From a virus (taxonomy: Duplodnaviria > Heunggongvirae > Uroviricota > Caudoviricetes), in the IMG/VR virus record IMGVR_UViG_2645727991_000020: a stretch of DNA of 17,248 nt; one strand, given 5' to 3'. Position 1 is the stretch's first letter. Every line of letters begins with the position of its first letter. The notes beneath the pieces are model-generated. The model made no database searches, was not told the origin of the DNA, and saw nothing but the letters and a program-made list of their open reading frames with translations. This document shows, piece after piece, positions 3,227-17,248 of this stretch. The translations under genes and the position numbers were made by a program.

Positions 3227-6200
3227 TTAATCATCCTCTCCAATATTTAGATTGCTGATAACCTGTGCAGCTTCGTGGTCATAGCCAACCGCTAAATCTC
3301 TTAAGGTAACGGCGAATCGCTGAAAACCAGCGTTTTCCACTTCTTCTGCTTTTGCCCGGAACTGGTCAGCTAGCTCTCTCTCAGGTTTTCCTGTTGGATC
3401 AACACAATAAACACCTCGTGAGTTGTAGGCTCCTGTCATGTAGCCCCTGCGCATACTCTCAGCATCTCGATCGTTGAGAGCAGCTGCGACCTCTCGGTTT
3501 ATCCACAAGCCATTCGGATCGGAGGGAGTATAAATCAAGACTTCACCAACTTTGCTGAGTGCAACGTCCAGGTGACCTGATGCCGTAGAACCCTCCTTAA
3601 CTTTCTGAAGCCATTCAGTAAAGCGTTCTCCGTTGAACGTCCCATTTGATTGGCTTCCTGGCGGTGTCTTCCAGTTGTACAAAAGAGTCCAGGCATTTTT
3701 TGCGATTGCTTTCAATTCATCTGTTGGTTCACTTGTCATATTGTCTTCTTTGTCAGAACGATAAATGAGTTGGATTACTTCGCAGAAAAATTCTGGATCA
3801 TTAGCCATTTTATTCTCAAGGAACTTAGGCACAGCATCTTGGTGACCATCGAGCAATGGAAGGTAAGCCCACTCGATCTGAAAAAGATTATCCGGATTCA
3901 CTTTGGGATCAGTCTGAAGAAATTGGATAAGGGTAGTTATGTTGTAACCATCCATGTTGGAGCTAGATTCGTTAGTTGAAGTGGCAGCAAGCAAAGCGCG
4001 GATACACTGTTCAGTATCGATTGGCTGCTTTGTCTGATGCATCCTGCACAGGCAATTGATTGCCGCAAGTGGTCTGCCATGATCAATCAGCTTATCGATG
4101 GCACTAGTAAGATCACCTTCACCCAGGTCAGGATTTGCATCGGTGCGAGCCCAATATTCGTTCTCGGAAGCTTGAGGATAATGAGAGACTCGGGTCCAGG
4201 TCTCCTTGTTAAAAGGCAGATAAGCAAAGAATTGGCCTAACTGTTCAGGAGTCCAGTCAGCTTTATCCAGATTGTCGAACCACTCCCAGCCTTTGAGATA
4301 GAAACGCTTCCAAATAAAAGCGCTTACCAATGCCTTATACTTATTTTCTTTTGTATTGAGGAAACGGGGCAAAAGAAGTTTTTCGAACACATCATCGTTG
4401 ATAGTGCCGAGTACACTTCCTATTTGATGGGGCGCAGAAACGTGATCTGCAAATCGAATAACGCCTTCTGCGCCATCTTGCCTAAGAATTTCTGATATTG
4501 CGGATTCGCGCCTTGATTCGAGTTTATTTCTCCGTTCTTCCCAATCGCCATTTTCTAAGTAAAGATCAAAATCTCGATTTGAAAAAAGGTGCTGATATAA
4601 GTTGAATGGATTGGTAGGTGCCAGTTGCTCGGCAACATTTTCGATTTTGGTCAGCAGATCATCAGGTAAAGCCCAATTAGCATTAGAGAATCGCCGATGT
4701 TTATTTGCGAATCGATGAAGATGATCCCAAATTACAACTCGCTGCTCTTCATTAAGACAATTAATTGTTTCCGAAGAGAGGTGCTTAAGAAGATGTTCGA
4801 AAGCAGGAGATGGAAGGCTATCAAAATTATCAATCAACAAGGTAAGGCGTTCGATATCTTCTCCAGCGTTTTTGACGGCAAGCTCAGCATAAAAAGATGT
4901 CTGCAACCAGTAATCCTGATTAGTCACTTTGCTTTCCCAATCATCTGGGATTATTCGGCGCCAAGAGGGCTTGTGTGACCCAGAAGAGGTTTGATGGTGA
5001 CCGGGTAGAAGCTGGACGAGTAAATTCCAGGCAATGTCAGGCCATTCCTGCAAGATGACGTTGACTGCAACTTTTCGTTTTTCTATAGATGCCAGCGTTT
5101 GCGGAAACCACGGTAATAATATAGTAGTAAGCGAGTTAGATGGTCGATTAGCCCACTTGCCCCCAGGATCGTGGCTGGCAAGTTCGGCCAGTACAACACA
5201 GACGCGTACTAGGTATTGCTCATCCCAGGCTAATTCTTCTAGAGCCCATAGCAGTCCTGTCAGATAATTACCACCAGTGATACCATTTACTTCTTGAGAA
5301 AAAAGCTCATCAAATACACAAGGAGTCTGACGCATTGCCTTCTCAACTGCATCAAGAAATTTTGCAGGAGCTGCTTCAGCCAAAGTTGGTAGCAAACCGT
5401 TTAGGCTACCCCATAAAACCCAGTTTGCATCAGTCAAAATTGTATGTATTGCGACGTTAACGGAAGTTTCAGCATTCCCCTGAGAGCAGTTAACGCAAAC
5501 CTCTGGCCGACTCCCGATTATGGCTAAACCCTCTGCTATACCTTGTCGCAGCGTGGATGAAAACTTCAGCACCTTACCATGAATACTAGCAGCGTAACGC
5601 TCTTCAGCAGGTAATTCGAAAGCAGGGTCTGGCTCTTTGAGTACGGAAATCGCGGAAGACTTAAACAATTCAAGATTCTGATCAAAAATGCGGGATCCAA
5701 GAAGACTCCATAGCTCCATTCGATTTGTTACTTTCCAAATGCCGTTTTTTAGGGACAAAGGACTGTCTGGGCTATGTAAAATCTCTCGAGCCTTCCTTAG
5801 CCATTCGTCATAGCTGATACCAAGCAATTGGGTTAGTACATTTCGGTCACACTCATTTTTATCATTCCATTGCCCAATCAACACTGCTAAGGCTAAATAA
5901 GAGGCATCTGGGTGGTGAGTCCAGTCGGTTTTGACTACCGGTTGTACTAACCTCAACTTCTCAGGTATTTCAGCAATAACCCTTTGTTTGAAAACATCTA
6001 AAAGATCTTCAGGTAGCTTACTTGAAATGATAGTGCCAGCATCTTTATTCCAAGTTTGTACGATATCAACTATCCGCGACCAAACCCACTGAGGATACTG
6101 TTGATGGAATTGCGCTATGTGGGAGTGCAGCAAAGAAAGGACGACGCCTGATTCATTACCCAGATCGTACCCTAGTAAATGGAAATGGTTCAAAAAGTCA

Positions 6201-6775
6201 TAAAGCTCATCGTTTGTTAAATCGTTCCCACTGTTTGCCATCTTCAGATGAAACTGGATGGTCTCCAGTTTCTCAGTACTTTTAGGCGGGCTGAACTTGG
6301 CTTTTTGAACGTTCCTCAAAAATTCATCGACTGTTTTTGTGTGTCTAGCCTGATTCAATAACCAGAGCACATTGTGTGTATCGGTCGAACTGAGCGGACC
6401 GGTGATCAGTGCAATAACATCCTTGTTCTTGGTAAACAAGTCAGGATTGTTGAAATCGTTCCAAGCAGCCTGTATAACTTCCCCAAGTATCGCATTACCT
6501 TGCGTAAATGAAATAGAATGCTTTATTTGTCCTAATAGCTTCCGTTTTTCATTTCTGTTGAAATCTTTAACAACGACGATCAAGTCGTCGGTATCAAAAC
6601 CATCAATCTTGCCCTGGAGATTTATCTCCACTATGGGCCAACAAGGAAGACAAGGTGCATTACCGCCTGTTAGCATTAGAGCAACAAAAGACGCTTGGAC
6701 ATGTGCTTCAAAATGAACACCGCCTCCGCCTGTAGAAAAAGGATTACTCAAATTTTTTTTATTTGTCATTAACAA
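3227..6775 (-). CDS. large hypothetical protein (~1,180 aa), function unknown; candidate phage-defence or effector cargo
   Basis: Uninterrupted 3.5-kb ORF. The track start at 6775 is TTG; the first ATG is at 6769 (MTNKKNLSNPF...). Stop TAA at 3227-3229. I found no Walker A GxxxxGK[ST] and no other catalytic signature I can name. The N-terminus has a Gly-rich loop (STGGGGVHFEAH), a CxxC (CLPC) and an acidic-hydrophobic strand (GFDTDDLIVVVKD); a second CxxC (CVNC) lies near residue 430; the remainder is Trp/Leu-rich and probably helical. Product is unassigned. Confidence 0.85.
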   Translation of the reverse strand: MLMTNKKNLSNPFSTGGGGVHFEAHVQASFVALMLTGGNAPCLPCWPIVEINLQGKIDGFDTDDLIVVVKDFNRNEKRKLLGQIKHSISFTQGNAILGEVIQAAWNDFNNPDLFTKNKDVIALITGPLSSTDTHNVLWLLNQARHTKTVDEFLRNVQKAKFSPPKSTEKLETIQFHLKMANSGNDLTNDELYDFLNHFHLLGYDLGNESGVVLSLLHSHIAQFHQQYPQWVWSRIVDIVQTWNKDAGTIISSKLPEDLLDVFKQRVIAEIPEKLRLVQPVVKTDWTHHPDASYLALAVLIGQWNDKNECDRNVLTQLLGISYDEWLRKAREILHSPDSPLSLKNGIWKVTNRMELWSLLGSRIFDQNLELFKSSAISVLKEPDPAFELPAEERYAASIHGKVLKFSSTLRQGIAEGLAIIGSRPEVCVNCSQGNAETSVNVAIHTILTDANWVLWGSLNGLLPTLAEAAPAKFLDAVEKAMRQTPCVFDELFSQEVNGITGGNYLTGLLWALEELAWDEQYLVRVCVVLAELASHDPGGKWANRPSNSLTTILLPWFPQTLASIEKRKVAVNVILQEWPDIAWNLLVQLLPGHHQTSSGSHKPSWRRIIPDDWESKVTNQDYWLQTSFYAELAVKNAGEDIERLTLLIDNFDSLPSPAFEHLLKHLSSETINCLNEEQRVVIWDHLHRFANKHRRFSNANWALPDDLLTKIENVAEQLAPTNPFNLYQHLFSNRDFDLYLENGDWEERRNKLESRRESAISEILRQDGAEGVIRFADHVSAPHQIGSVLGTINDDVFEKLLLPRFLNTKENKYKALVSAFIWKRFYLKGWEWFDNLDKADWTPEQLGQFFAYLPFNKETWTRVSHYPQASENEYWARTDANPDLGEGDLTSAIDKLIDHGRPLAAINCLCRMHQTKQPIDTEQCIRALLAATSTNESSSNMDGYNITTLIQFLQTDPKVNPDNLFQIEWAYLPLLDGHQDAVPKFLENKMANDPEFFCEVIQLIYRSDKEDNMTSEPTDELKAIAKNAWTLLYNWKTPPGSQSNGTFNGERFTEWLQKVKEGSTASGHLDVALSKVGEVLIYTPSDPNGLWINREVAAALNDRDAESMRRGYMTGAYNSRGVYCVDPTGKPERELADQFRAKAEEVENAGFQRFAVTLRDLAVGYDHEAAQVISNLNIGEDD

Positions 6776-6914: not shown

Positions 6915-7418
6915 TTACTGATAGTGTTTTATGTTCAGATAATGCCCGATGACCTTGTCATGCAACTCCACCGATTTTGAGAACGACAGTGACTTCCGTC
7001 CCAGCCTTGCCAGATGTTGTCTCAGATTCAGATTATGTCGCTCAATGCGCTGCGTATATCGCTTGCTGATAACGTGCAGCTTTCCCTTCAGGCGTGATTC
7101 ATACAGCGGCCAGCCATCCGTCATCCATACCACGACCTCAAAGGCCGACAGCAGGCTCAGAAGACGCTCCAGTGTGGCCAGAGTGCGTTCACCGAAGACG
7201 TGCGCCACAACCGTCCTCCGTATCCTGTCATACGCGTAAAACAGCCAGCGCTGACGTGATTTAGCACCGACGTAGCCCCACTGTTCGTCCATTTCAGCGC
7301 AGACAATCACATCACTGCCCGGTTGTATGCGCGAGGTTACCGACTGCGGCCTGAGTTTTTTAAGTGACGTAAAACCGTGTTGAGGCCAACGCCCATAATG
7401 CGTGCACTGGCGCGACAT
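6915..7418 (-). CDS. insB: IS1 transposase InsB (expressed natively as an InsAB' frameshift fusion)
   Basis: 167-aa product ...[58 protein letters not shown]... matches IS1 InsB with a few substitutions. It overlaps the 3' end of insA as expected for programmed -1 frameshifting. Confidence 0.9.
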
Positions 7419-7612
7419 CCGACGCCATTCATGGCCATATCAATGATTTTCTGGTGCGTACCGGGCTGAGAGGCGGTGTAAGTGAACTGTAGTTGCCATG
7501 TTTTACGGCAATGAGAGCAGAGATAGCGCTGATGTCCGGCAGTGCTTTTGCCGTTACGCACCACGCCTTCAGTAGCGGAGCAGGAAGGACATCTGATGGA
7601 AATGGAAGCCAC
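7337..7612 (-). CDS. insA: IS1 protein InsA (zinc-finger DNA-binding regulator)
   Basis: 91-aa product [68 protein letters not shown]... matches IS1 InsA. Confidence 0.9.
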
Positions 7613-7667
7613 GCAAGCACCTTAAAATCACCATCATACACTAAATCAGTAAGTTGGCAGCATTACC

Positions 7668-9283
7668 AAATCATCAATAACGAAAGCTGGTTATGTTCTC
7701 CGTTAAGCGTTATCGGTACTGGCAGAGACGATAAAGACCAGTATCTCATTCTTCGCTGGCTGTCGTTTGGTTCTGAAACGCCGACAACCGCTGCCATTCC
7801 ACTGGCTGATATTGGTGAACGTGAAGGATGGCGCACACTTAAAGCTGGTGGGGTAAATGTCACGACCAAAAGCAGCCTCAGAGCAATACTGGCAGACTGG
7901 CTACAACGCAGTGGCTCTCGTGAATTGTGGCGTGTTGCTCATGCCACTGGCTGGCAATGCGGAGCGTACATCATGCCTGATGGGGAAATCATCGGAACAC
8001 CTGAAAATCCTGTGCTGTTCAGCGGGAGAAGCTCAGCCGCAGCCGGATATACCGTCTCAGGGAGCGCGAAAAGCTGGCGTGATAACGTGGCGCGTCTGGC
8101 CTTTGGTAACTATTCAATGATGACCGGGATCGGCGCAGCACTGGCAGCGCCATTGATTGGGCTGGTGGGCGCTGACGGGTTCGGCATTCATTTCTATGAG
8201 CAGTCGAGCGCAGGTAAGACCACCACGGCAAACGTGGCGAGCAGCTTATACGGCAACCCTGATTTACTGCGGCTGACGTGGTACGGAACCGCGCTGGGGC
8301 TGGCAAATGAGGCCGCCGCCCACAATGACGGACTAATGCCGCTTGATGAAGTTGGTCAGGGCGCTGATCCTGTCAGCGTTTCACAGTCTGCCTATGCGTT
8401 ATTTAACGGTGTAGGGAAACTGCAAGGCGCTAAAGATGGTGGAAACCGGGATCTAAAACGCTGGCGTACAGTGGCAATCAGCACCGGAGAAATGGATTTA
8501 GAAACATTTATCGCTACTTCCGGGCGAAAAACCAAAGCCGGGCAACTGGTGCGACTGCTGAATATTCCGTTGAGTAAAGCAGTACGCTTTCACGATTACC
8601 AGAACGGAAAACAGCACGCAGACGCACTGAAAGACGCTTACCAGCATCACCACGGCGCAGCCGGGCGTGAGTGGATTAAATGGCTGGCAGACCACCAGCA
8701 ACAGGCTATTAAAACCGTTCGTGATTGCGAAAGCAGATGGAGAAACCTGATCCCATCCGATTATGGTGAGCAGGTTCACCGTGTAGCCGCGCGATTTGCC
8801 ATTCTGGAGGCCGCATTGCTGTTAGGCGAGGTTGTAACAGGCTGGGATGCTCAGACATGCCGTGATGCGATACAGCACAGCTATAACGCATGGTTGCGCG
8901 AGTTCGGCACAGGTAACAAAGAACATCAGCAGATTATTGAACAAACGGAGGCATTTCTTAATGCCTATGGGCTTAGCCGTTTTGCACCATTTCCATACAG
9001 CCCGGCAGATTTGCCCATCAAAGATTTAGCCGGATACCGTCAGCGTGGAGAACATGACGAAAGCCCAATGATTTTCTACACATTCCCGGCCACATTTGAA
9101 AAGGAGATCGCATGTGGTTTCAACGCAAAACAGTTTGCTGAAGTGTTGAAAAAAGCCGGGATGCTAACCCCACCAAACAGCGGTCGTGGATACCAAAGAA
9201 AATCACCACGTATTCAGGGACGACAAATAAACGTTTATGTACTCAATTACCAGCCAGGAGATTATAACTCATCTGAAGAATGA
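7668..9283 (+). CDS. P-loop NTPase replication protein of mobile-element type (tentatively DUF927 family), 5'-truncated by IS1; probable pseudogene
   Basis: The track ORF 7493..9283 begins inside IS1. Native sequence starts at the IS1 boundary (7668) with no in-frame ATG until 7973 (IMPDGEIIG), yet the intervening 100 codons read as genuine protein. Walker A-like YEQSSAGKTTT and Walker B-like GLMPLDEVGQ are present. The gene ends about 20 bp before iteron cluster A. Confidence 0.6.
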
Positions 9284-9301
9284 GCTTCTTCATGTGCGTA
9301 G

Positions 9302-9422
9302 AAAAGGTGTTGGTTCAGTTGGTTCAGTTGGTTCAATTTATAAAGGGTATTGTTTTATAAGGATTTTATTCTTTTTATTGAACCAACACTGAACCAACAA
9401 CACGGTATTTTGAACCAACACA
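9302..9422. repeat. iteron cluster A (origin-like)
   Basis: Three tandem 9-bp repeats ttggttcag / ttggttcag / ttggttcaa (about 9310-9336), an AT-rich spacer of roughly 40 bp, then three inverted copies tgaaccaaca (9379-9420). Confidence 0.7.
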
Positions 9423-9469
9423 ATGTGACTGAATTGATGCGCACAACACCTGGCTGGCATCAGAGAGTG

Positions 9470-9546
9470 TTTTACGAGACTTTCGTAAAATCCTGTGTAC
9501 AAGGGCGTGACGTTTTTGAAAGTGAGCACTACGAAATTTTCGTAGT
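9470..9546. promoter_or_regulatory. pair of TACGA-N5-TCGTA palindromes (candidate operator sites)
   Basis: ttttacgaGACTTtcgtaaaa (9470-9490) and actacgaaATTTtcgtagt (9528-9546) share identical half-sites TACGA / TCGTA with 5-bp spacers, centres about 57 bp apart. Confidence 0.4.
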
Positions 9547-9737
9547 TCAAAAAACAGCCTCTGAGAAGTTGTTATGCCTGTTCAGCAAACCATCCGCATA
9601 GCTGATCGCGAATCAAATTACCAATGGAGCCAGAAGCAAGGGCAGAACTGAAAAGCGCCTGCCGTGAAGAGTAATGCGACACCATAAATATAGTTTTTAG
9701 AGTCCATAAAAAACCTGTCAAAACCTGACACACAGAA

Positions 9738-9773
9738 CGACGCCACCAGCTACTGAGCGGTGGCATTTTTTTG
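9738..9773 (+). terminator. putative rho-independent terminator (plus strand)
   Basis: GC-rich stem gccacc (9742-9747) / ggtggc (9759-9764) followed by a run of seven T (9766-9772). It sits between the iteron/operator region and the downstream operon. Confidence 0.45.
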
Positions 9774-9867
9774 TGCTATTTGTTTCATATTCTGCAATTA
9801 CGATGATGAATATTGCGATTTGTGAAACTATAATAACTGTTGTTTTATACAGTTATAAGGGGGCGTT

Positions 9868-10029
9868 ATGGCTATTTCAGTAAAGCCGGTATTGATAAGT
9901 GAGAAGCAAATGGAAGCGATAAAGAAAATTCAGGAAGAGCAGCGTAAAAAATCAGGAATTGGAGTAGCGCCAACTCTGCATGAAATTGCACGAGGGTTAA
10001 TAGATAAGGCGCTGGCAGGCTGTATGTGA
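9868..10029 (+). CDS. small hypothetical protein (53 aa), possibly a ribbon-helix-helix-like DNA-binding protein
   Basis: Not in the supplied track (below its length cut-off). ATG at 9868 with a strong Shine-Dalgarno AAGGGGG 6 nt upstream; product MAISVKPVLISEKQMEAIKKIQEEQRKKSGIGVAPTLHEIARGLIDKALAGCM; TGA at 10027-10029. It sits 16 bp upstream of the four-gene operon. The RHH assignment is a guess from the strand-then-helix pattern. Confidence 0.45.
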   Translation: MAISVKPVLISEKQMEAIKKIQEEQRKKSGIGVAPTLHEIARGLIDKALAGCM

Positions 10030-10045
10030 AAATGGATGGCATCGC

Positions 10046-10507
10046 ATGGAACTAAAATTTATTGATAACCCTGTGCGATTACAGGCCTTTCTTAACGAGC
10101 CAGGCAATACCGAAAATATTGTTGAGCCGGGGCACACGTACTACATCAAGCCTGATGCGGTATATCTCGGCATCTACGAAGGATTAGTGCTGGCTGGCGT
10201 TCATGAAGTGCGTAACTTCTGGCATAGCGTTGTTGAATGCCATGCGGTGTACGACCCCGGATTCCGTGGTGAATATGCACTGCAAGGGCATCGATTATTC
10301 TGCAAATGGCTTCTCGAAAACTCACCATTCCTTAACAGCATCACTATGGTTCCTGACACCACGAAATATGGACGGGCAATTATCCGTTTGCTTGGCGCTA
10401 CCCGTGTTGGTCACCTTGATGATGCTTATATCAGATGTGGTAAACCCGTCGGCGTAACGCTTTATCAGTTAACTCGGCAACAATATAAGGAATTCAGCGA
10501 ATGTTAA
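10046..10507 (+). CDS. hypothetical protein (153 aa), first gene of a translationally coupled operon
   Basis: ATG at 10046; its stop (TAA 10505-10507) overlaps the next start (ATGTTAA). No motif recognised. Confidence 0.7.
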   Translation: MELKFIDNPVRLQAFLNEPGNTENIVEPGHTYYIKPDAVYLGIYEGLVLAGVHEVRNFWHSVVECHAVYDPGFRGEYALQGHRLFCKWLLENSPFLNSITMVPDTTKYGRAIIRLLGATRVGHLDDAYIRCGKPVGVTLYQLTRQQYKEFSEC

Positions 10508-11178
10508 TTACCCATATAGCTCATAAACATCTCAATCGTGCCGTATACGAAAAAGGCGGTGATGGTGGTGCCTCTAAAGCTCAGGCGAAGGCCCAGCAGC
10601 AGGCAATTGATTTGCAGCGCGAGCAGTGGAATACGGTGATGAATAATCTCAAGCCGTATGCAGAAGTCGGATTGCCTGCTTTACAACAACTGCAAGGACT
10701 GATGACTCTGGAAGGGCAGAATAAAGCCGCGAATGATTTCTTTGGTTCTGGTTTATATAAAACACAGGCAGATCAGGCCCGTTATCAGAACCTTGTCTCA
10801 GCAGAAGCTACCGGGGGGCTTGGCTCAACAGCTACCAGTAACCAGTTATCTTCCATTGCGCCCATGCTTTATAACAATTGGCTCAGTGGGCAAATGCAAA
10901 ATTATGGAAACCTGCTAAATGTCGGGATGAATGCGGCATCAGGGCAGGCAACAGCAGGGCAAAACTACGCCAATAATACCGGGCAACTCTTGCAGGGGCT
11001 TGGCGCTATTCGTGCAGGTCAGGCGCAGCAGCCATCCAGTCTTGCGCGTGGTATTGGTGGGGCGGCATCAGGCGCTTTAGCGGGTGCGCAACTTGGTTCC
11101 GTTGTTCCGGGTATAGGTAATGTCGCCGGGGCTATTGGTGGTGGGCTTATTGGTCTTGTTGGGGGGCTTGGATTCTAA
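10501..11178 (+). CDS. hypothetical protein (225 aa) with Gly-rich hydrophobic C-terminus; possible virion ejection/injection protein (P22 gp7-like by size and position)
   Basis: Start overlaps the upstream stop; C-terminus GIGGAASGALAGAQLGSVVPGIGNVAGAIGGGLIGLVGGLGF is membrane-active-like; Gln/Ala-rich low-complexity middle. The homology call is inference only. Confidence 0.7.
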   Translation: MLITHIAHKHLNRAVYEKGGDGGASKAQAKAQQQAIDLQREQWNTVMNNLKPYAEVGLPALQQLQGLMTLEGQNKAANDFFGSGLYKTQADQARYQNLVSAEATGGLGSTATSNQLSSIAPMLYNNWLSGQMQNYGNLLNVGMNAASGQATAGQNYANNTGQLLQGLGAIRAGQAQQPSSLARGIGGAASGALAGAQLGSVVPGIGNVAGAIGGGLIGLVGGLGF

Positions 11179-12599
11179 TGGCGACATGGCAACTTGGCGG
11201 GCTGCCTAGCATGGCACCGCAAAATGATAATGCTCCTCGTTCTTCCGTTCCTCAGCCTGTGCAGTATCAGCAGCACCCAAACGTAGGTTTAATGGCGCTA
11301 CAGGGGCTAAGAGGCGTTGCTGAGATTAATCAGCAGGCACGTCAACAACAGCGTAAAGCAGAGTTTCAGAAAGCATATGCCGGGGCTTTTGAGTCTGGAG
11401 ACAGAAACAAAATGCGCAGTCTTATTTCTGAGTATCCAGAAGAATTTGAAAGCGTTCAGAAAGGGATGGGCTTTATTGATGACGACCAGAGAAATTCTAT
11501 TGGTCATCTTGCGACTAGTGCTCAAATCGCATCTTCGCTCGGAACTGGGGCATTTGGAAAATTCATAGCAGATAACGAAGATGAAATGCGTCGCTTGGGA
11601 ATTTCTCCTGAGTCTGTTGCCGAAATGCATGTTAATGATCCACAGGGATTCCAGCGGCTTGCTGGTAGTATGGCACTGTTTTCTCTCGGTCATGAGAAGT
11701 ATTTCGATATCAAAGATCAAATGGAAGGTCGGGATATTGAGCGTGGCAAGTTGGCAGAGACAATCCGCAGCAATCAGGCTGGCGAAGCACTTCAGGCGAG
11801 AGGGCAGGATATTAGCCGAGCAAATGCGTTAACGTCAGCATATGCACCAACAGCAGCAATGCAGAATTACAATCAGTACGCTCAAATGTTAAAGGCGGAT
11901 CCAGAGGGGGCGGCGGCATTTGCGGCAGCGGCTGGAATTAATACAAACGCCAAAAAATTAATGAGTGTTAGAGAAAACGATGATGGCACTGTCACAAAAT
12001 ACTACACAGACGGAAGTGAAGAGCAGGGAAAACTAAACCAGCCAATATCTGGAGATGGGTTTCGTCCAATAGCTTTGCCAACAGCCCAAAAGATCATGGA
12101 AAAGTCGCCAGAAGGGGCTAAAAAAGCTGCTGGATTTGCATACAGGGTTAGGGATGCTCTTGATTCAATAGATACACTGAAAGACCAGCTTAGCCCACAG
12201 CGAGTGGCGATCATTAATAATGCTTTGGGTAATGGGACGCTGGCTAACTTAACGCTCAGCCCAACAGAGCAGCAATACGTTGTTAATGCTAATGACGCAA
12301 TAATGGCAATACTCCGTCAGGAAACAGGGGCAGCTATCGCACCTGCTGAAATGTCAAAATATTATCAAATGTATTTCCCTCAGCCTGGCGACTCCACAAA
12401 AACCATTGATACCAAGCGCCGGAAGATGGAAAACCAGTTCAATTCGCTGAAAGCTGCTTCTGGTCGAGCTTATGATGCTTTGCGGGTTATTTCAGCAGTT
12501 GACAGAGGAACTTCTTCTTCGTCGCAGACATTGCCGCAATCTGAGCAGGTATCACAGCCAGCAGCCAGCAGTAACTTTTCTTCACTATGGGGTGATTAA
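11178..12599 (+). CDS. hypothetical protein (473 aa); possible virion ejection protein (P22 gp20-like by size and position)
   Basis: TAATG overlap with the upstream gene; hydrophilic, Ala/Gln/Glu-rich. The size matches my recollection of gp20 at about 471 aa. Inference only. Confidence 0.7.
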   Translation: MATWQLGGLPSMAPQNDNAPRSSVPQPVQYQQHPNVGLMALQGLRGVAEINQQARQQQRKAEFQKAYAGAFESGDRNKMRSLISEYPEEFESVQKGMGFIDDDQRNSIGHLATSAQIASSLGTGAFGKFIADNEDEMRRLGISPESVAEMHVNDPQGFQRLAGSMALFSLGHEKYFDIKDQMEGRDIERGKLAETIRSNQAGEALQARGQDISRANALTSAYAPTAAMQNYNQYAQMLKADPEGAAAFAAAAGINTNAKKLMSVRENDDGTVTKYYTDGSEEQGKLNQPISGDGFRPIALPTAQKIMEKSPEGAKKAAGFAYRVRDALDSIDTLKDQLSPQRVAIINNALGNGTLANLTLSPTEQQYVVNANDAIMAILRQETGAAIAPAEMSKYYQMYFPQPGDSTKTIDTKRRKMENQFNSLKAASGRAYDALRVISAVDRGTSSSSQTLPQSEQVSQPAASSNFSSLWGD

Positions 12600-14704
12600 T
12601 GGCTAAAGCATGGAAAGATGTTATCGCCTCTCCACAGTATCAGGCGTTAGCACCAGAACAAAAAGCGCAGGCTCAGGAGCAATACTTCAATGAAGTCGTT
12701 GCCCCGCAAGCCGGAGAAAGTGTAGAGCAGGCTAAGCAGGCTTTTTATGCTGCCTATCCACTACCATCAACGAATGAAATAGACCGATCCCAATCAGCAA
12801 CTCAAAATATTCAACATACATCATCTGATAATTCTCTTGCGTCAGGGTATGCAAAGTTAGCTACTCAGCAAAGAGAGGGGCTTGAGCGTTCAGCAGAACA
12901 GGGAGCCAGTCTTGGGGCTGCGATGCGCGATGCTATAACAGGCGAAAGCCGAATGACTCCAGAGATGGAGAGACTGCAAAATGTCACCTCTGCCCCAGAA
13001 TTGAACTCACTAAGCATGGATGCCCTAAAGGCTGGATGGTCTCAACTTTTCGGCTCTGACGCGTCTCAGGAAAAGATTCTTCAGGGAATGGGGGCGACAT
13101 TAAGGCAGGATGAGAAGGGGAATACTATCGTTTCTCTGCCATCAGGTGATTATGCCCTGAACAAGCCGGGTTTATCACCGCAAGACCTGACTTCGTTTCT
13201 TGCTAATGCGTTGGCGTTTACACCAGTGGGCAGGGCTGGAACGGTGCTTGGTGCCATAGGAAAATCAGCAGCTACAGATTTAGCACTACAGGGAGCCACC
13301 AGCCTTGCTGGTGGAGAAGATATTGATCCGTTACAAACGGTAATTTCTGCTGGCATTGGTGGTATTGGTAAGGGGCTGGAAAATACAGCGAGTGCGGTTT
13401 CGAGGGCTGTTCGTGGTGATATGTCGCCTGAAGCAAAGGCTGCTGTCGACTTTGCATCGGAAAGAAATCTGCCGTTAATGACCAGTGACATGCTGAAAGA
13501 TAAAACCTTTATGCAGAGTCAGGCTCAGACATTAGGCGAAAGAGTTCCTTTTTTTGGAACCGGTAAGAATCGGCTGAATCAACAACAAGCACGAGAAAAT
13601 TTAGTCAGAACATTTAGCGATGGTCTGGGTGGCATTTCTGATAAACAGCTTTATGAATCTGCGACTAAAGGGCAACAAAAATTCATTGAGGCAGCAGGAA
13701 AGCGATATAACCGCATAATTGACGCTATGGGGGATACCCCTGTCGATCTCTCAAACACGGTAAAAGCTATCGACAATCAGATTGCCGTGTTAAGCCGCCC
13801 GGGCAAATCTCAGGATAGAGCCGCGGTAAAAGTCTTGCAGCAATTTAAAGACGATATCACCAGCGGACCAAATGACCTGCGTCTGGCGAGGGAAAACAGA
13901 ACCGATCTTCGAAAGCGATTTATGGCGTCATCTGACACTGTTGATAAAGATACGCTCCAGAAAGCCAGCGATATTATCTACAAGGCATATACGGCGGATA
14001 TGAAAAAAGCCGTAGCCAAAAATCTTGGAGCAGACGAAGCCATTAATATGGCAAGGGTTGATCGCTCATGGTCTAAATTCAATGATATGATGGGAAGAAC
14101 GCGCGTTCAAAAGGCAATAGCCAGCGGCAAGGCCACGCCTGAGGATGTAACAAAACTCGTTTTTAGCCAAAGCCCATCAGAACGTTCTCAGCTTTACAGG
14201 CTTCTGGATGACAATGGTAGGCAAAACGCACGAGCAGCCATAGTTCAGAATGCTGTAGATAAGGCGACTGATCCGTCTGGAAATATCAGTGTTGAGAAGT
14301 TTATTAATGCGTTACACCGGAACAGGAAGCAATCAGCAACTTTCTTTAAAGGCGTACATGGAAAGGAACTGGACGGCGTTATTAAATACCTCAACGATAC
14401 AAGACACGCGGCAAAAGCGAACGTTCAAAACTTAAATGGTCAGCAGCTTTATGGATTGTTAGTTGGTGGTGGCATCATAAACGCAGCAGTATTAGCGGGG
14501 ATGCTAAAAACGGCTGCGTTTGTTGTTCCTGCTGCTGGTGCCGTAGGCGGAGCAGCGAAGGCATACGAAAGCCCTGTTATACGAAATGCCTTGTTACGTC
14601 TGGCAAATACGCCAAAAGGTAGCACAGCATATGACAGAGCGATCAGTACGGTCACACAATCGCTCACCAGAGTCGCACAGGCATCACAAAAAGAAGCTCA
14701 ATAA
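12599..14704 (+). CDS. hypothetical protein (701 aa) with C-terminal hydrophobic segment; possible virion ejection protein (P22 gp16-like by position)
   Basis: TAATG overlap with the upstream gene; a hydrophobic stretch LYGLLVGGGIINAAVLAGMLKTAAFVVPAAGAVGGAA lies near the C-terminus; stop TAA at 14702-14704 is followed by a hairpin and T-run. Confidence 0.7.
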   Translation: MAKAWKDVIASPQYQALAPEQKAQAQEQYFNEVVAPQAGESVEQAKQAFYAAYPLPSTNEIDRSQSATQNIQHTSSDNSLASGYAKLATQQREGLERSAEQGASLGAAMRDAITGESRMTPEMERLQNVTSAPELNSLSMDALKAGWSQLFGSDASQEKILQGMGATLRQDEKGNTIVSLPSGDYALNKPGLSPQDLTSFLANALAFTPVGRAGTVLGAIGKSAATDLALQGATSLAGGEDIDPLQTVISAGIGGIGKGLENTASAVSRAVRGDMSPEAKAAVDFASERNLPLMTSDMLKDKTFMQSQAQTLGERVPFFGTGKNRLNQQQARENLVRTFSDGLGGISDKQLYESATKGQQKFIEAAGKRYNRIIDAMGDTPVDLSNTVKAIDNQIAVLSRPGKSQDRAAVKVLQQFKDDITSGPNDLRLARENRTDLRKRFMASSDTVDKDTLQKASDIIYKAYTADMKKAVAKNLGADEAINMARVDRSWSKFNDMMGRTRVQKAIASGKATPEDVTKLVFSQSPSERSQLYRLLDDNGRQNARAAIVQNAVDKATDPSGNISVEKFINALHRNRKQSATFFKGVHGKELDGVIKYLNDTRHAAKANVQNLNGQQLYGLLVGGGIINAAVLAGMLKTAAFVVPAAGAVGGAAKAYESPVIRNALLRLANTPKGSTAYDRAISTVTQSLTRVAQASQKEAQ

Positions 14705-14708
14705 CTGG

Positions 14709-14731
14709 TTAGCCATGGATGGCTAATTTTT
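14709..14731. terminator. putative terminator shared by the convergent operon and membrane-protein gene
   Basis: Palindrome ttagccat-gg-atggctaa (14709-14726) followed by TTTTT (14727-14731), directly after the stop of the 701-aa gene and overlapping the stop of the minus-strand gene. Confidence 0.4.
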
Positions 14732-15142
14732 GTTCTTTGCTCTCATCCATAGGTAAAGAAGGGAAAGAACAAGACAAAAAACAGAGAATAGATAACCTAC
14801 CTCATATGGTGCGCCAAAAAAATTAGCTATTGATACGGGCAAAAAAGCTGAGGCGATCAAAATTGAAAGGCAAAAAATAAGCCCAGTAATATAGTTTATT
14901 AAATTCTTAAATGAGAAACGTTTTGCTTGATTTACGGTCTTAACGAACGATCGCTTAACGACGGATAAAAGCAAATAGATGGCGACAGTTGCTAATGCCC
15001 CTTTCCACCAGTCTGGATATAGTTTTGCGACAATCAGACCAAGGAAAACCATGATGACAGCCTGAGCATTCACACCAACCCTCCCTTTAGCTTTGTTTAG
15101 AATGGCAATCATCATATATCCAAGACATGGCATTTGGTACAT
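14723..15142 (-). CDS. small integral membrane protein (about 115-139 aa); candidate superinfection-exclusion-type moron
   Basis: Three to four hydrophobic helices (VIMVFLGLIVAKL, ATVAIYLLLSVV, ITGLIFCLSILIASAFL, LFSVFCLVLSLLYLW). The likelier start is an in-frame GTG at 15073, preceded by AGGGAGG, rather than the track ATG at 15142. Convergent with the operon. Confidence 0.6.
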   Translation of the reverse strand: MYQMPCLGYMMIAILNKAKGRVGVNAQAVIMVFLGLIVAKLYPDWWKGALATVAIYLLLSVVKRSFVKTVNQAKRFSFKNLINYITGLIFCLSILIASAFLPVSIANFFGAPYEVGYLFSVFCLVLSLLYLWMRAKNKN

Positions 15143-16106
15143 AGCTTGGGTCGGGATTTCAAATCCGATCCCCGTTGATGGGGCCGTTACAGTACGCGCA
15201 TATCCGCTTTATGTGAAACAGGAAGATTTTTCTGATATCACTGCCACAGCAAAACACCAATTTCGAGACAAGTACGCGCGCGAGGGGTATCAGTTGCAAA
15301 AAATTTTGCAACTACGTCCGACCAGTATGCACACGATGGCGGAGGGATACCATAAAACTGTTCTCTACATGAGACAGAGTGGTGGTGATGTGTTGATTAT
15401 CGGCGTATATGCGCACAGGACGCGCTATGACGATGTTTTATGCGGGTACACCAATCACATGTATCTGGTGTGATAAATCGCGTTACATGACCTCTCATGT
15501 TGTACTGGTGGTTATCACGACGTTCTGAATCTGGCCTTTGCCTGGTATTTTGCGACAAGTACGCGCGCGTAGCATCGAAATAATCGGATGGCGTATGCTG
15601 CTGGTAATATGAAGACCGATAGCATTAACCGTAAGGAGAAAGACTTCTCGATAACGGCAAGGGGGCTGAATTGCGAGGCGAGATTAAGCAACTGTCTTGA
15701 ACGTAAAAATCATGGAGCAACATGATGGTACGATTCATTCCATTCTTCGTTCTTTCTGAGCATTGCGTTCAGGCTTAGTCAAAATTAGTGTTGCGAGCGG
15801 ACCTATTAGTAATTGTTGGTGCGATGCGTCTGTTATGGATTGTTATGGTTGTGGCAGGCCTGATTAATATCCAGTATGACCACCAGCTATGAGAGGCCAC
15901 CTCAGTGGTTCGCAGTTGCAGGTTTGCACTCAGGTTCGCAGGGTTTTGGCTACTTTCACGTGCGAACCTGCAGAATTGCAAAGGACAACTAAGTCCTCTG
16001 GCCAACTCCCGGTTTATGAGCGACACAGTCCGCCTGGCGCATCGTTTTCGTCGAGTGCGCCCATCAGCTTGTCCATGGACTATCCACCACTCGATATTAA
16101 AGCTAA

Positions 16107-16292
16107 TCATTGGTTGCCAGCCCGCGAATCAAGTTTGTTCTGGATCCAAGCTTCAACCTCCTCAAGCGACCATCTAGCTGATCTACCAATTTTAACTGGC
16201 TGTGGAAACGTGCCCGTCTTAACCCATGAGTAGATTGCCGTTTTCTTGAAGCCCGTTCTGAGCATGACTTCGCTTAATTTGATAAGGCGCAT
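16107..16292 (-). CDS. alpA: AlpA-family phage regulatory protein (MerR-like DNA-binding / excisionase-type)
   Basis: 61-aa product MRLIKLSEVMLRTGFKKTAIYSWVKTGTFPQPVKIGRSARWSLEEVEAWIQNKL has the AlpA helix-turn-helix signature. A strong SD (GAGGAG) lies upstream of the ATG at 16292. Confidence 0.85.
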   Translation of the reverse strand: MRLIKLSEVMLRTGFKKTAIYSWVKTGTFPQPVKIGRSARWSLEEVEAWIQNKLDSRAGNQ

Positions 16293-16341
16293 AGAGGCTC
16301 CTCTGCTTTAGATTAAGCATAGTGACAATCTGGCTTTGGGT

Positions 16342-16376
16342 GGTATCCAAAAGCGAGGTATCCATGTTGGTATCCA
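16342..16376. promoter_or_regulatory. three direct GGTATCCA repeats in the alpA upstream / divergent promoter region
   Basis: GGTATCCA at 16342-16349, 16357-16364 and 16369-16376 (spacing 15 and 12 bp), 50-85 bp upstream of the alpA start. A second direct pair TTCACGCA lies near 16455-16475. Confidence 0.35.
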
Positions 16377-16543
16377 CCAAAACGCTGTTTACCAAAAAGT
16401 TACCACCGGAACAGGACATTTTGAGCTGTAACTTAACACATAGCATATGGAGTTCACGCATAGACTTCACGCACAACGGCTCTGGCCAGTGAAGAATCAC
16501 CCTGGCTAGCAATATAATGCCGATCACCATCAGAGGGGAATCC

Positions 16544-16735
16544 ATGACACCACGAGAAATCGAGCTGCTGACCATTGCCAAGCTGGAGCATGGCGGCCAC
16601 CAGCTCAGCCCGGCAGAACTGCGGGAATTAAGGCGCCAGCTGGCAGAGGGCCCTGTAATAGCCAGGCGGTACCGCGAAATGATGACCAGCCCCGCATATC
16701 GCTGGAGCAAACCAGCGCCGCTCCGTGCGCGGTGA
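16544..16735 (+). CDS. small hypothetical protein (63 aa), divergent from alpA
   Basis: ATG at 16544 with SD AGAGGGG upstream and a TATAAT-like hexamer at 16513-16518; product MTPREIELLTIAKLEHGGHQLSPAELRELRRQLAEGPVIARRYREMMTSPAYRWSKPAPLRAR. The track start at 16517 is an in-frame upstream ATG without an SD. No family recognised. Confidence 0.45.
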   Translation: MTPREIELLTIAKLEHGGHQLSPAELRELRRQLAEGPVIARRYREMMTSPAYRWSKPAPLRAR

Positions 16736-16807
16736 GCAGCACCTAACCAGCACTAGACAAGCCCTGTGCTGGTGGATGTCCCTCATAATTAGCGGTTTTT
16801 AAACGGC

Positions 16808-16936
16808 GTGTTGGTTCACGGCCTCTTTTTGTTGGTTCAAAAATGGGGTGTGTTGGTTCACTTTTTGCGAATAATTCTTTTAAAAACAATACTCTTTACA
16901 AATTGAACCAACTGAACCAACTGAACCAACACCTTT
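16808..16936. repeat. iteron cluster B (origin-like), inverted relative to cluster A
   Basis: Three loosely spaced ttggttca copies (16811-16858), an AT-rich spacer, then three tandem 9-bp tgaaccaac repeats (about 16904-16930). The reverse complement of 16901-16938 is identical to 9302-9339 over about 38 bp, with further similarity beyond. Confidence 0.7.
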
Positions 16937-16966
16937 TTGCTTATCTATATAATCTGAGAGGCAGAA

Positions 16967-17248
16967 ATGATAAGGGACAGGAAAGCTGAAGAGCTGGAGT
17001 CAAAAGGGCTATACCGGAGAGCTGCCGCACGATGGATGGAAGTCATGCTGTTATGCACCGAGGACGATGATCGGGAATGGATAAAGCGCCGCCGTGAAAC
17101 GTGTCTGGAGAACGTGAAGCGCCCGCCCGTGAAGGTTGAGGAATTTGGCGACCTGCATAAAGCTGTTACCGAAACGCAACACCGCATGGGGATAGCGCAA
17201 CCGAACGGTAACGCCTTCCGGTTAAATGGCGGCAAGAGGCAAAGGTAG
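16967..17248 (+). CDS. probable PerC-family transcriptional regulator (93 aa)
   Basis: Product MIRDRKAEELESKGLYRRAAARWMEVM... fits the N-terminal pattern I associate with PerC/Pch regulators (AEELE.KG..RRAA.RW). SD GAGAGG and a TATAAT lie just upstream; the stop TAG is the last three bases of the window. Family call from memory only. Confidence 0.5.
   Translation: MIRDRKAEELESKGLYRRAAARWMEVMLLCTEDDDREWIKRRRETCLENVKRPPVKVEEFGDLHKAVTETQHRMGIAQPNGNAFRLNGGKRQR

Follow-up and report, generated by a model that had tools for sequence, protein, structure and literature searches.

A narrowly distributed family of small membrane proteins in the sieA position beside gene 16 of P22-like prophages and genomic islands

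An uncharacterised, narrowly distributed family of small membrane proteins occupies the sieA position next to gene 16 in P22-like prophages and in related islands. The member described here is encoded in a 17,248-nucleotide stretch of the Caudoviricetes record IMGVR_UViG_2645727991_000020, which as a whole is called the window below, and its gene is convergent with that of a gene-16-type ejection protein (Table 1). By position and topology the candidate is an analogue of the exclusion protein SieA that stands outside the SieA family, and the same two properties make an exclusion activity plausible.

Table 1. Candidate gene, its parts and its neighbours in the window
Feature	Coordinates	Strand	Remarks
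CDS, 116-aa membrane protein	14723..15073	(-)	GTG start, TAG stop
Shine-Dalgarno GGAGG	15080..15084	(-)	6 nt before GTG; read from the sequence; kept in all aligned loci
Upstream in-frame extension	15074..15142	(-)	ATG 15142 and ATG 15112; source of the 139- and 129-aa readings
Island backbone on the 5' side of the slot gene (probable promoter region)	15074..15660	(-)	Conserved in L007 and L020
Most conserved motif LGLIVAKLYPDWW, aa 11-23	15005..15043	(-)	End of TM1 and predicted periplasmic turn
K/R-rich loop, about aa 40-51, reaching aa 56	14921..14956	(-)	Predicted cytoplasmic, positive-inside rule
TM3, aa 62-83	14825..14890	(-)	Hydropathy 2.47; AlphaFold helix 55-85
TM4, aa 92-110	14744..14800	(-)	Hydropathy 2.1; AlphaFold helix 90-115
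Gene-16 (late operon) terminator	14707..14738	(+)	Hairpin GGTTAGCCA-TGGA-TGGCTAATT and T-tract; terminator scan
Gene-16-type ejection protein, 701 aa	12599..14704	(+)	Convergent neighbour; phrog_770, 2.5e-163
gp14 (DUF2824), gp7 and gp20 homologues	10046..12599	(+)	Same operon, upstream; Pfam PF11039, PF25688, PF16928

The preliminary description of this locus had proposed a small polytopic membrane protein of 115-139 amino acids with a good Shine-Dalgarno sequence before an internal GTG, and both points hold: the enclosing open reading frame (14723..15142, minus strand) has 139 codons, and translation from the GTG at 15073-15071 yields 116 amino acids. The annotated start is inconsistent (109, 116 or 129 aa), with RefSeq/PGAP giving a 'hypothetical protein' of 129 aa that begins at ATG 15112 (WP_000560496.1). 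When the gene was aligned together with its upstream DNA, the Shine-Dalgarno sequence and the start codon (GTG or ATG) coincided in 7 of 7 loci from different genomic contexts, the upstream DNA being otherwise unrelated. In-frame stops lie a few codons upstream of the start in L008, L013 and L015, and nearly all of the distant homologues (n=8, 98-131 aa) begin at profile position 1, which is the GTG of the candidate. The 139-aa and 129-aa starts were rejected on these grounds, and the protein is therefore taken to be 116 aa long. The in-frame extension before the GTG is found only in the island backbone, other contexts carrying stops there, and probably represents a noncoding 5' UTR. It is common to unrelated genes in the same slot (P0021 and P0020 types), which diverge from the GTG onward; such divergence beginning at the start codon suggests a cassette-swap junction.

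The island-backbone region upstream of the gene is 96.8% identical in L007 and 86.6% identical in L020, both of which carry other slot genes. A scan of this region revealed no convincing or strong sigma-70 consensus, inspection by hand gave weak candidates only, and Rfam and tRNA scans returned no RNA feature near the candidate gene. About 570 nt upstream of the gene is conserved among the island variants, and the same Shine-Dalgarno sequence and GTG (window 15071-15090) are used by unrelated genes in the same position of the sister islands L007 and L019/L020. One type of gene found there is a divergent family member (P0020/P0022), and the product of the other (P0021, phrog_2651) is secreted, measures about 115 aa and has its signal-peptide site at ANA|E. 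The upstream region also holds a 126-codon open reading frame on the plus strand (15093-15473), which only the window keeps intact: L007 and L018 carry frameshifts in it, and L020 has lost 53 nt by deletion. Neither Pfam nor PHROGs gave a match to this reading frame, which is probably a decaying gene.

The candidate is a real, conserved gene under purifying selection. Pairwise Nei-Gojobori dN/dS values between the window copy and the E. coli prophage, Yersinia and Edwardsiella copies range from 0.13 to 0.47, and in more distant pairs of the family the proteins retain 36-38% identity at saturated synonymous sites. Constraint is strongest in the first 22 codons (pN 0-0.2 vs pS 0.2-0.9), in keeping with the nearly invariant motif described below. 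The GC content of the gene is 38.6%, compared with 45-49% in the flanks. A chance or decaying reading frame devoid of function might be suspected from the lack of a database family and from the inconsistent start annotation, but these dN/dS values, the recognisable protein at saturated dS, the conservation of the Shine-Dalgarno sequence and start across genera, and the span of the E. coli matches, 227 of 229 of which cover >=80% of the gene, make this explanation extremely improbable.

Four hydrophobic segments were found by Kyte-Doolittle analysis (aa 1-19, 26-44, 65-83 and 92-110), and an AlphaFold2 model (pLDDT 73.7, pTM 0.41) contains helices at aa 3-18, 22-50, 55-85 and 90-115, so that the topology check proposed in the preliminary description returned four transmembrane helices with both approaches. 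The loop of aa 40-56 contains six K/R and zero D/E residues, the C-terminal tail is RAKNKN, and the two short loops, PDWWKG and NFFGAPYEVG, carry one acidic residue each; by the positive-inside rule, both termini (N-in/C-in) and the central loop are predicted to be cytoplasmic. Columns of the motif LGLIVAKLYPDWW are invariant or nearly so in alignments A2 and A5, and the nearly invariant motif of the family may be written as LGLIVAKLYP(D)WW.

The window gp16 shares 97.6% identity with its homologue in an E. coli P22-like prophage. Its gene is followed by a terminator-like hairpin (14707-14728, plus strand) and then by TTTGTTCTTT, and the TAG stop of the candidate (14723-14725) falls inside the 3' arm of this hairpin, an overlap correctly noted in the preliminary description. 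The codons for the C-terminal KNKN of the candidate are the complement of the terminator T-tract, and this tail is therefore under dual constraint. This hairpin has a GCCA-NGGA-TGGC core and is found again at most gene-16 3' ends in the comparison, that of the divergent gene 16 of P22 among them, and its outer pair covaries (A:T, G:C, T:A, G.T); among the same 3' ends it was not evident in L022, HS1 and N7.

The family member and a gene-16 homologue are convergent in 10 of 10 context types examined, their stop codons lying 17-21 nt apart. Five of the contexts are P22-like prophages or remnants, one being a remnant: the family member lies beside gene 16 in the E. coli P22-like prophages at the bio and tor loci (L008-L011), in the P22-like prophage L022 and in the K1-type prophage remnant L017, and in the Yersinia prophage L005 the order is gp16, family member, a 108-aa gene and tailspike. 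Islands and short contigs comprise the window-type island (L001, L018), the Edwardsiella island L006, and L007, L013, L015 and L023. In L005, L008-L011 and L022 the gene is located between gene 16 and the tailspike gene (gene 9 homologue). The partner gene-16 proteins fall into at least two sequence types that are mutually unalignable by BLAST. In P22, sieA (BK000583, 13336..13830, minus strand) is likewise convergent to gene 16 with stops 22 nt apart, and in HS1 the distance is 21 nt, which bears out the earlier statement that P22-like phages carry an exclusion gene just after their ejection-protein genes.

Genes 16 and 9 flank the known 'ant moron', a region in rapid genetic flux; its genes do not share one function, and most are functionally uncharacterised (PMC2629481). 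The candidate is non-morphogenetic, is positioned after gene 16 and varies among relatives, as is typical of morons, and it has its own Shine-Dalgarno sequence and start, lies on the strand opposite to the late operon and is low in GC, from which we infer independent expression as a moron gene. In L022 four co-directional Arc/Mnt-family genes precede a homologue at a distance of 42 nt; since Mnt is a repressor that maintains lysogeny (PMC2629481), expression of the family member in the lysogen is likely. Other genes of the moron region, mostly the first after gene 16, are largely envelope-targeted, with transmembrane anchors (CUS-3 hkcB, N7 ORF14), lipoprotein signals (phage L orf62, the 139-aa gene of L008) or signal peptides (the L020 gene, the 108-aa gene of L005). 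Among the neighbours of defence type are Abi (L006, L020) and, in L017, a YafO toxin. The ant moron of the E. coli P22-like prophages L008-L011 also holds a Peptidase_S9/DUF805/ClpP-like cluster (7764-9945), and in the K1 remnant L017 a ClpP-like gene follows mnt together with the YafO toxin (7217-8125); both sets of genes are possible further defence cargo.

SieA blocks DNA injection by P22-like phages and is an inner-membrane protein with 3-4 transmembrane helices; escape mutations fall within the C-terminal parts of gp16 and gp20, and the three SieA sequence types share the motif FxRYPxEAxxFNK near the cytoplasmic C-terminus (PMC10883804). SieA of types A, B and C (PF26849, phrog_7745) resembles the candidate in being the first gene after gene 16, convergent and with stops about 20 nt apart. 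Both are small polytopic membrane proteins with 3-4 helices, those of the candidate being predicted, and both are limited to P22-like elements of Enterobacterales, although the candidate is found also on capsid-less islands. The candidate is shorter (116 aa vs 164-212 aa) and has no counterpart of the long hydrophilic loop of SieA, and its conserved motif is N-terminal and predicted to be periplasmic, whereas that of SieA is C-terminal and cytoplasmic. Homology with SieA was rejected on BLASTP E-values of 0.84 (P22 SieA) and 6.8 (HS1 SieA), compared with 9e-23 between the two SieA proteins, which align easily. Comparison of the family profile with a profile of 20 SieA sequences in hhalign gave a probability of 0.28%; the candidate has no phrog_7745 match at E<=0.1, whereas P22 SieA matches this family at 9e-109, and PF26849 is found on nearly all SieA homologues and on none of the candidate's. 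FxRYPxEAxxFNK is absent from the candidate, whose C-terminus reads LLYLWMRAKNKN. The position and the occurrence of the family in P22-like prophages thus support the likeness to P22-like exclusion genes that had been put forward, but the family is not homologous to SieA.

The same slot is taken by HK620/CUS-3 hkcB, N7 ORF14, phage L orf62 and the phrog_2651 protein, which, like the candidate, are small uncharacterised proteins targeted to the envelope and swapped between similar elements. They are unrelated to the candidate in sequence and have a single transmembrane anchor, a lipoprotein signal or a signal peptide, whereas four transmembrane helices are predicted for the candidate. Lambda RexB (144 aa, four transmembrane helices) is a prophage-encoded membrane protein of similar size and helix number, and a prophage-expressed exclusion component, but it differs in genomic position, and the candidate has no adjacent RexA-like partner; this relationship was rejected (hhalign probability 0.46%, no adjacent partner gene). 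A possible link to the BI-1/YccA family (PF01027) arose from the IMG label 'FtsH-binding integral membrane protein' on the P0020 cluster and from a sub-threshold Pfam match. It was rejected as well, since 2 of 14 members match, the best with 23.8 bits against a cut-off of 34.1, hhalign against E. coli YccA gave 0.16%, and that family has seven transmembrane helices vs four predicted for the candidate. GtrA-type four-helix flippases and other small four-helix families produced no Pfam or NCBIfam match at threshold.

The family is very small and, as judged from the sequences retrieved, confined to Enterobacterales: a profile search among 1.84 billion representative proteins yielded 13 representative clusters at 50% identity, and there are 22 clusters at 90% identity. 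The hosts are E. coli, E. albertii, Salmonella, Yersinia enterocolitica, Edwardsiella tarda, Serratia fonticola and Pluralibacter gergoviae, and all named members are called 'hypothetical protein', except for the IMG label on the divergent P0020 cluster. Of 5426 complete E. coli genomes, 229 (4%) carry a family member, always on the chromosome, and the carriers include the pathotype strains 042, 83972, O111:H8 and K1 isolates; HS1-type sieA occurs in 21 of the same genomes and is thus about 10 times rarer. A prophage or an island was found at every family locus examined. The alternative raised in the preliminary description, a conserved host membrane protein, is countered by this low frequency together with the invariable prophage or island location. 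E. coli EC17CM7 (NZ_CP190027.1) has HS1-type sieA at 1.56 Mb and a member of the candidate family at 3.78 Mb, and because both are present at separate loci, the two are not mutually exclusive in a cell. Neither tblastn nor megablast detected a candidate homologue in 50,697 deposited phage genomes, so no cultured phage ties the candidate to a phenotype; CUS-3 was considered as a cultured carrier and rejected, hkcB and other genes filling that position. Pfam, NCBIfam, PHROGs and PADLOC contained no match above threshold, a profile search of PDB sequences returned 0 matches at E<=10, viral predicted structures included no fold match, and a literature search found no paper mentioning WP_000560496.

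The window element is not a P22-like phage. It is an island of the primase/AlpA/PerC kind, about 20 kb in size and truncated here by IS1 (window 7493-17248), that holds only the ejection-protein genes of P22 (gp14/7/20/16; elsewhere just gp20/gp16). Intact copies, which are near-identical, are located in E. coli 6409 (thrW, next to pao) and E. coli 042 (near dinD/yicG), and contain no portal, coat/capsid or tail genes and no tailspike after gene 16. The gene order is integrase, AntA/B, Ash, TOPRIM/DUF927 primase, gp14/7/20/16, candidate, AlpA-type HTH and PerC. In the window IS1 (6915-7418, transposase gene) abuts a truncated TOPRIM/DUF927 primase (7493-9283), of which 596 of about 918 aa remain; this genome lacks the left half of the island, and the DNA to the left of IS1 is unrelated. 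Related islands were seen in L001, L018, L006, L020 and L015. Judging from its gene content, the island looks like a satellite of P22-like phages with ejection proteins of its own; no paper describing satellites with ejection proteins was found in the literature.

We tentatively favour, at somewhat below an even chance, the reading that the candidate is an inner-membrane blocker of P22-like phage DNA delivery unrelated to SieA, which position and topology suggest. In this mechanism the resident prophage or island would produce the protein independently of the late operon, presumably in the lysogen; it would insert into the inner membrane with four transmembrane helices and both termini in the cytoplasm, and would interfere with the conduit formed by the ejection proteins gp20 and gp16, so that the DNA of an incoming P22-like phage is not delivered. 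Against it stand the failure of sequence, profile and fold comparisons to connect the candidate with SieA or another known exclusion protein, its smaller size, the missing hydrophilic loop and FxRYPxEAxxFNK motif, the lack of a strong promoter in the scan and the absence of the family from the deposited phage genomes. The predicted periplasmic place of its own conserved motif, at the end of TM1 and the first turn, is a further difference from SieA that may matter. The non-identical and mostly unknown functions of ant-moron genes (PMC2629481), the Abi, YafO and ClpP-like genes nearby and the missing homology with SieA would also suit a membrane protein for lysogenic conversion or defence with a target other than DNA entry, for instance an Abi-type effector or a modulator of the envelope or ion homeostasis that benefits the host. 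Such a generic moron role, however, leaves the fixed position beside very divergent gene-16 types unexplained, and neither a partner sensor gene nor a PADLOC match was found, so that we consider it doubtful. A more elaborate form of the blocker reading, in which the family is a fourth, non-homologous class of injection blocker whose periplasm-facing TM1-turn motif LGLIVAKLYPDWW contacts the incoming gp20/gp16 conduit directly, and which travels with gene 16 as an 'ejection protein plus exclusion' module, also on capsid-less primase/AlpA islands, is unlikely. On this reading, such islands may be satellites of P22-like phages, equipped with ejection proteins of their own and able to shut out competitors.

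The constant neighbourhood of gene 16, even on islands that keep only gp20/gp16, and the pairing of the divergent member P0020/P0022 with a divergent gene-16 type might also indicate a functional partner of gp16, either conferring immunity to membrane damage by the element's own E-proteins or acting as a co-evolving cognate factor. The candidate is, however, convergent to the late operon and thus not co-transcribed with it, and P22-like phages assemble and inject without it. Moreover, the linkage of the candidate to gene 16 is strong but not absolute: the gp16 gene of L020 (92.7% identical protein) is followed by an unrelated secreted protein with the same Shine-Dalgarno sequence and GTG, and that of phage N7 (68% identical) by yet another gene, which argues against an obligate partner and makes this explanation quite improbable. 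Small size, four transmembrane helices and weak holin-family Pfam matches of two family members (E 0.063) could hint at a holin-like, lysis or toxic membrane protein; but those matches are far below threshold, no endolysin gene is adjacent, the lysis cassette of the complete prophage HS1 lies elsewhere, and the candidate belongs to the prophage-expressed moron region, so that a lysis role is very improbable.

No blocker of the P22 ejection-protein conduit other than SieA has been characterised. An unrelated membrane protein in the sieA position offers a second, independent handle on the question of how SieA can recognise gp16 and gp20 proteins that diverge so widely (PMC10883804). If the candidate excludes P22-like phages, it bears on the prediction of phage host range and on phage therapy of E. 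coli; otherwise, its tight linkage to gene 16 is still to be explained.

In the part of the window to the left of the island, a 1182-aa open reading frame with a TTG start (3227-6775, minus strand), to which Pfam gave no match, lies between the gene of a MASE4-GGDEF diguanylate cyclase (1291-2622) and IS1. DNA from an unrelated prophage, with the C-terminus of a tail fibre and a gene for tail-fibre assembly (Caudo_TAP), occupies 52-1217 of the window, and an Rfam IS009 match (976-1174) falls within the tail-fibre assembly gene.
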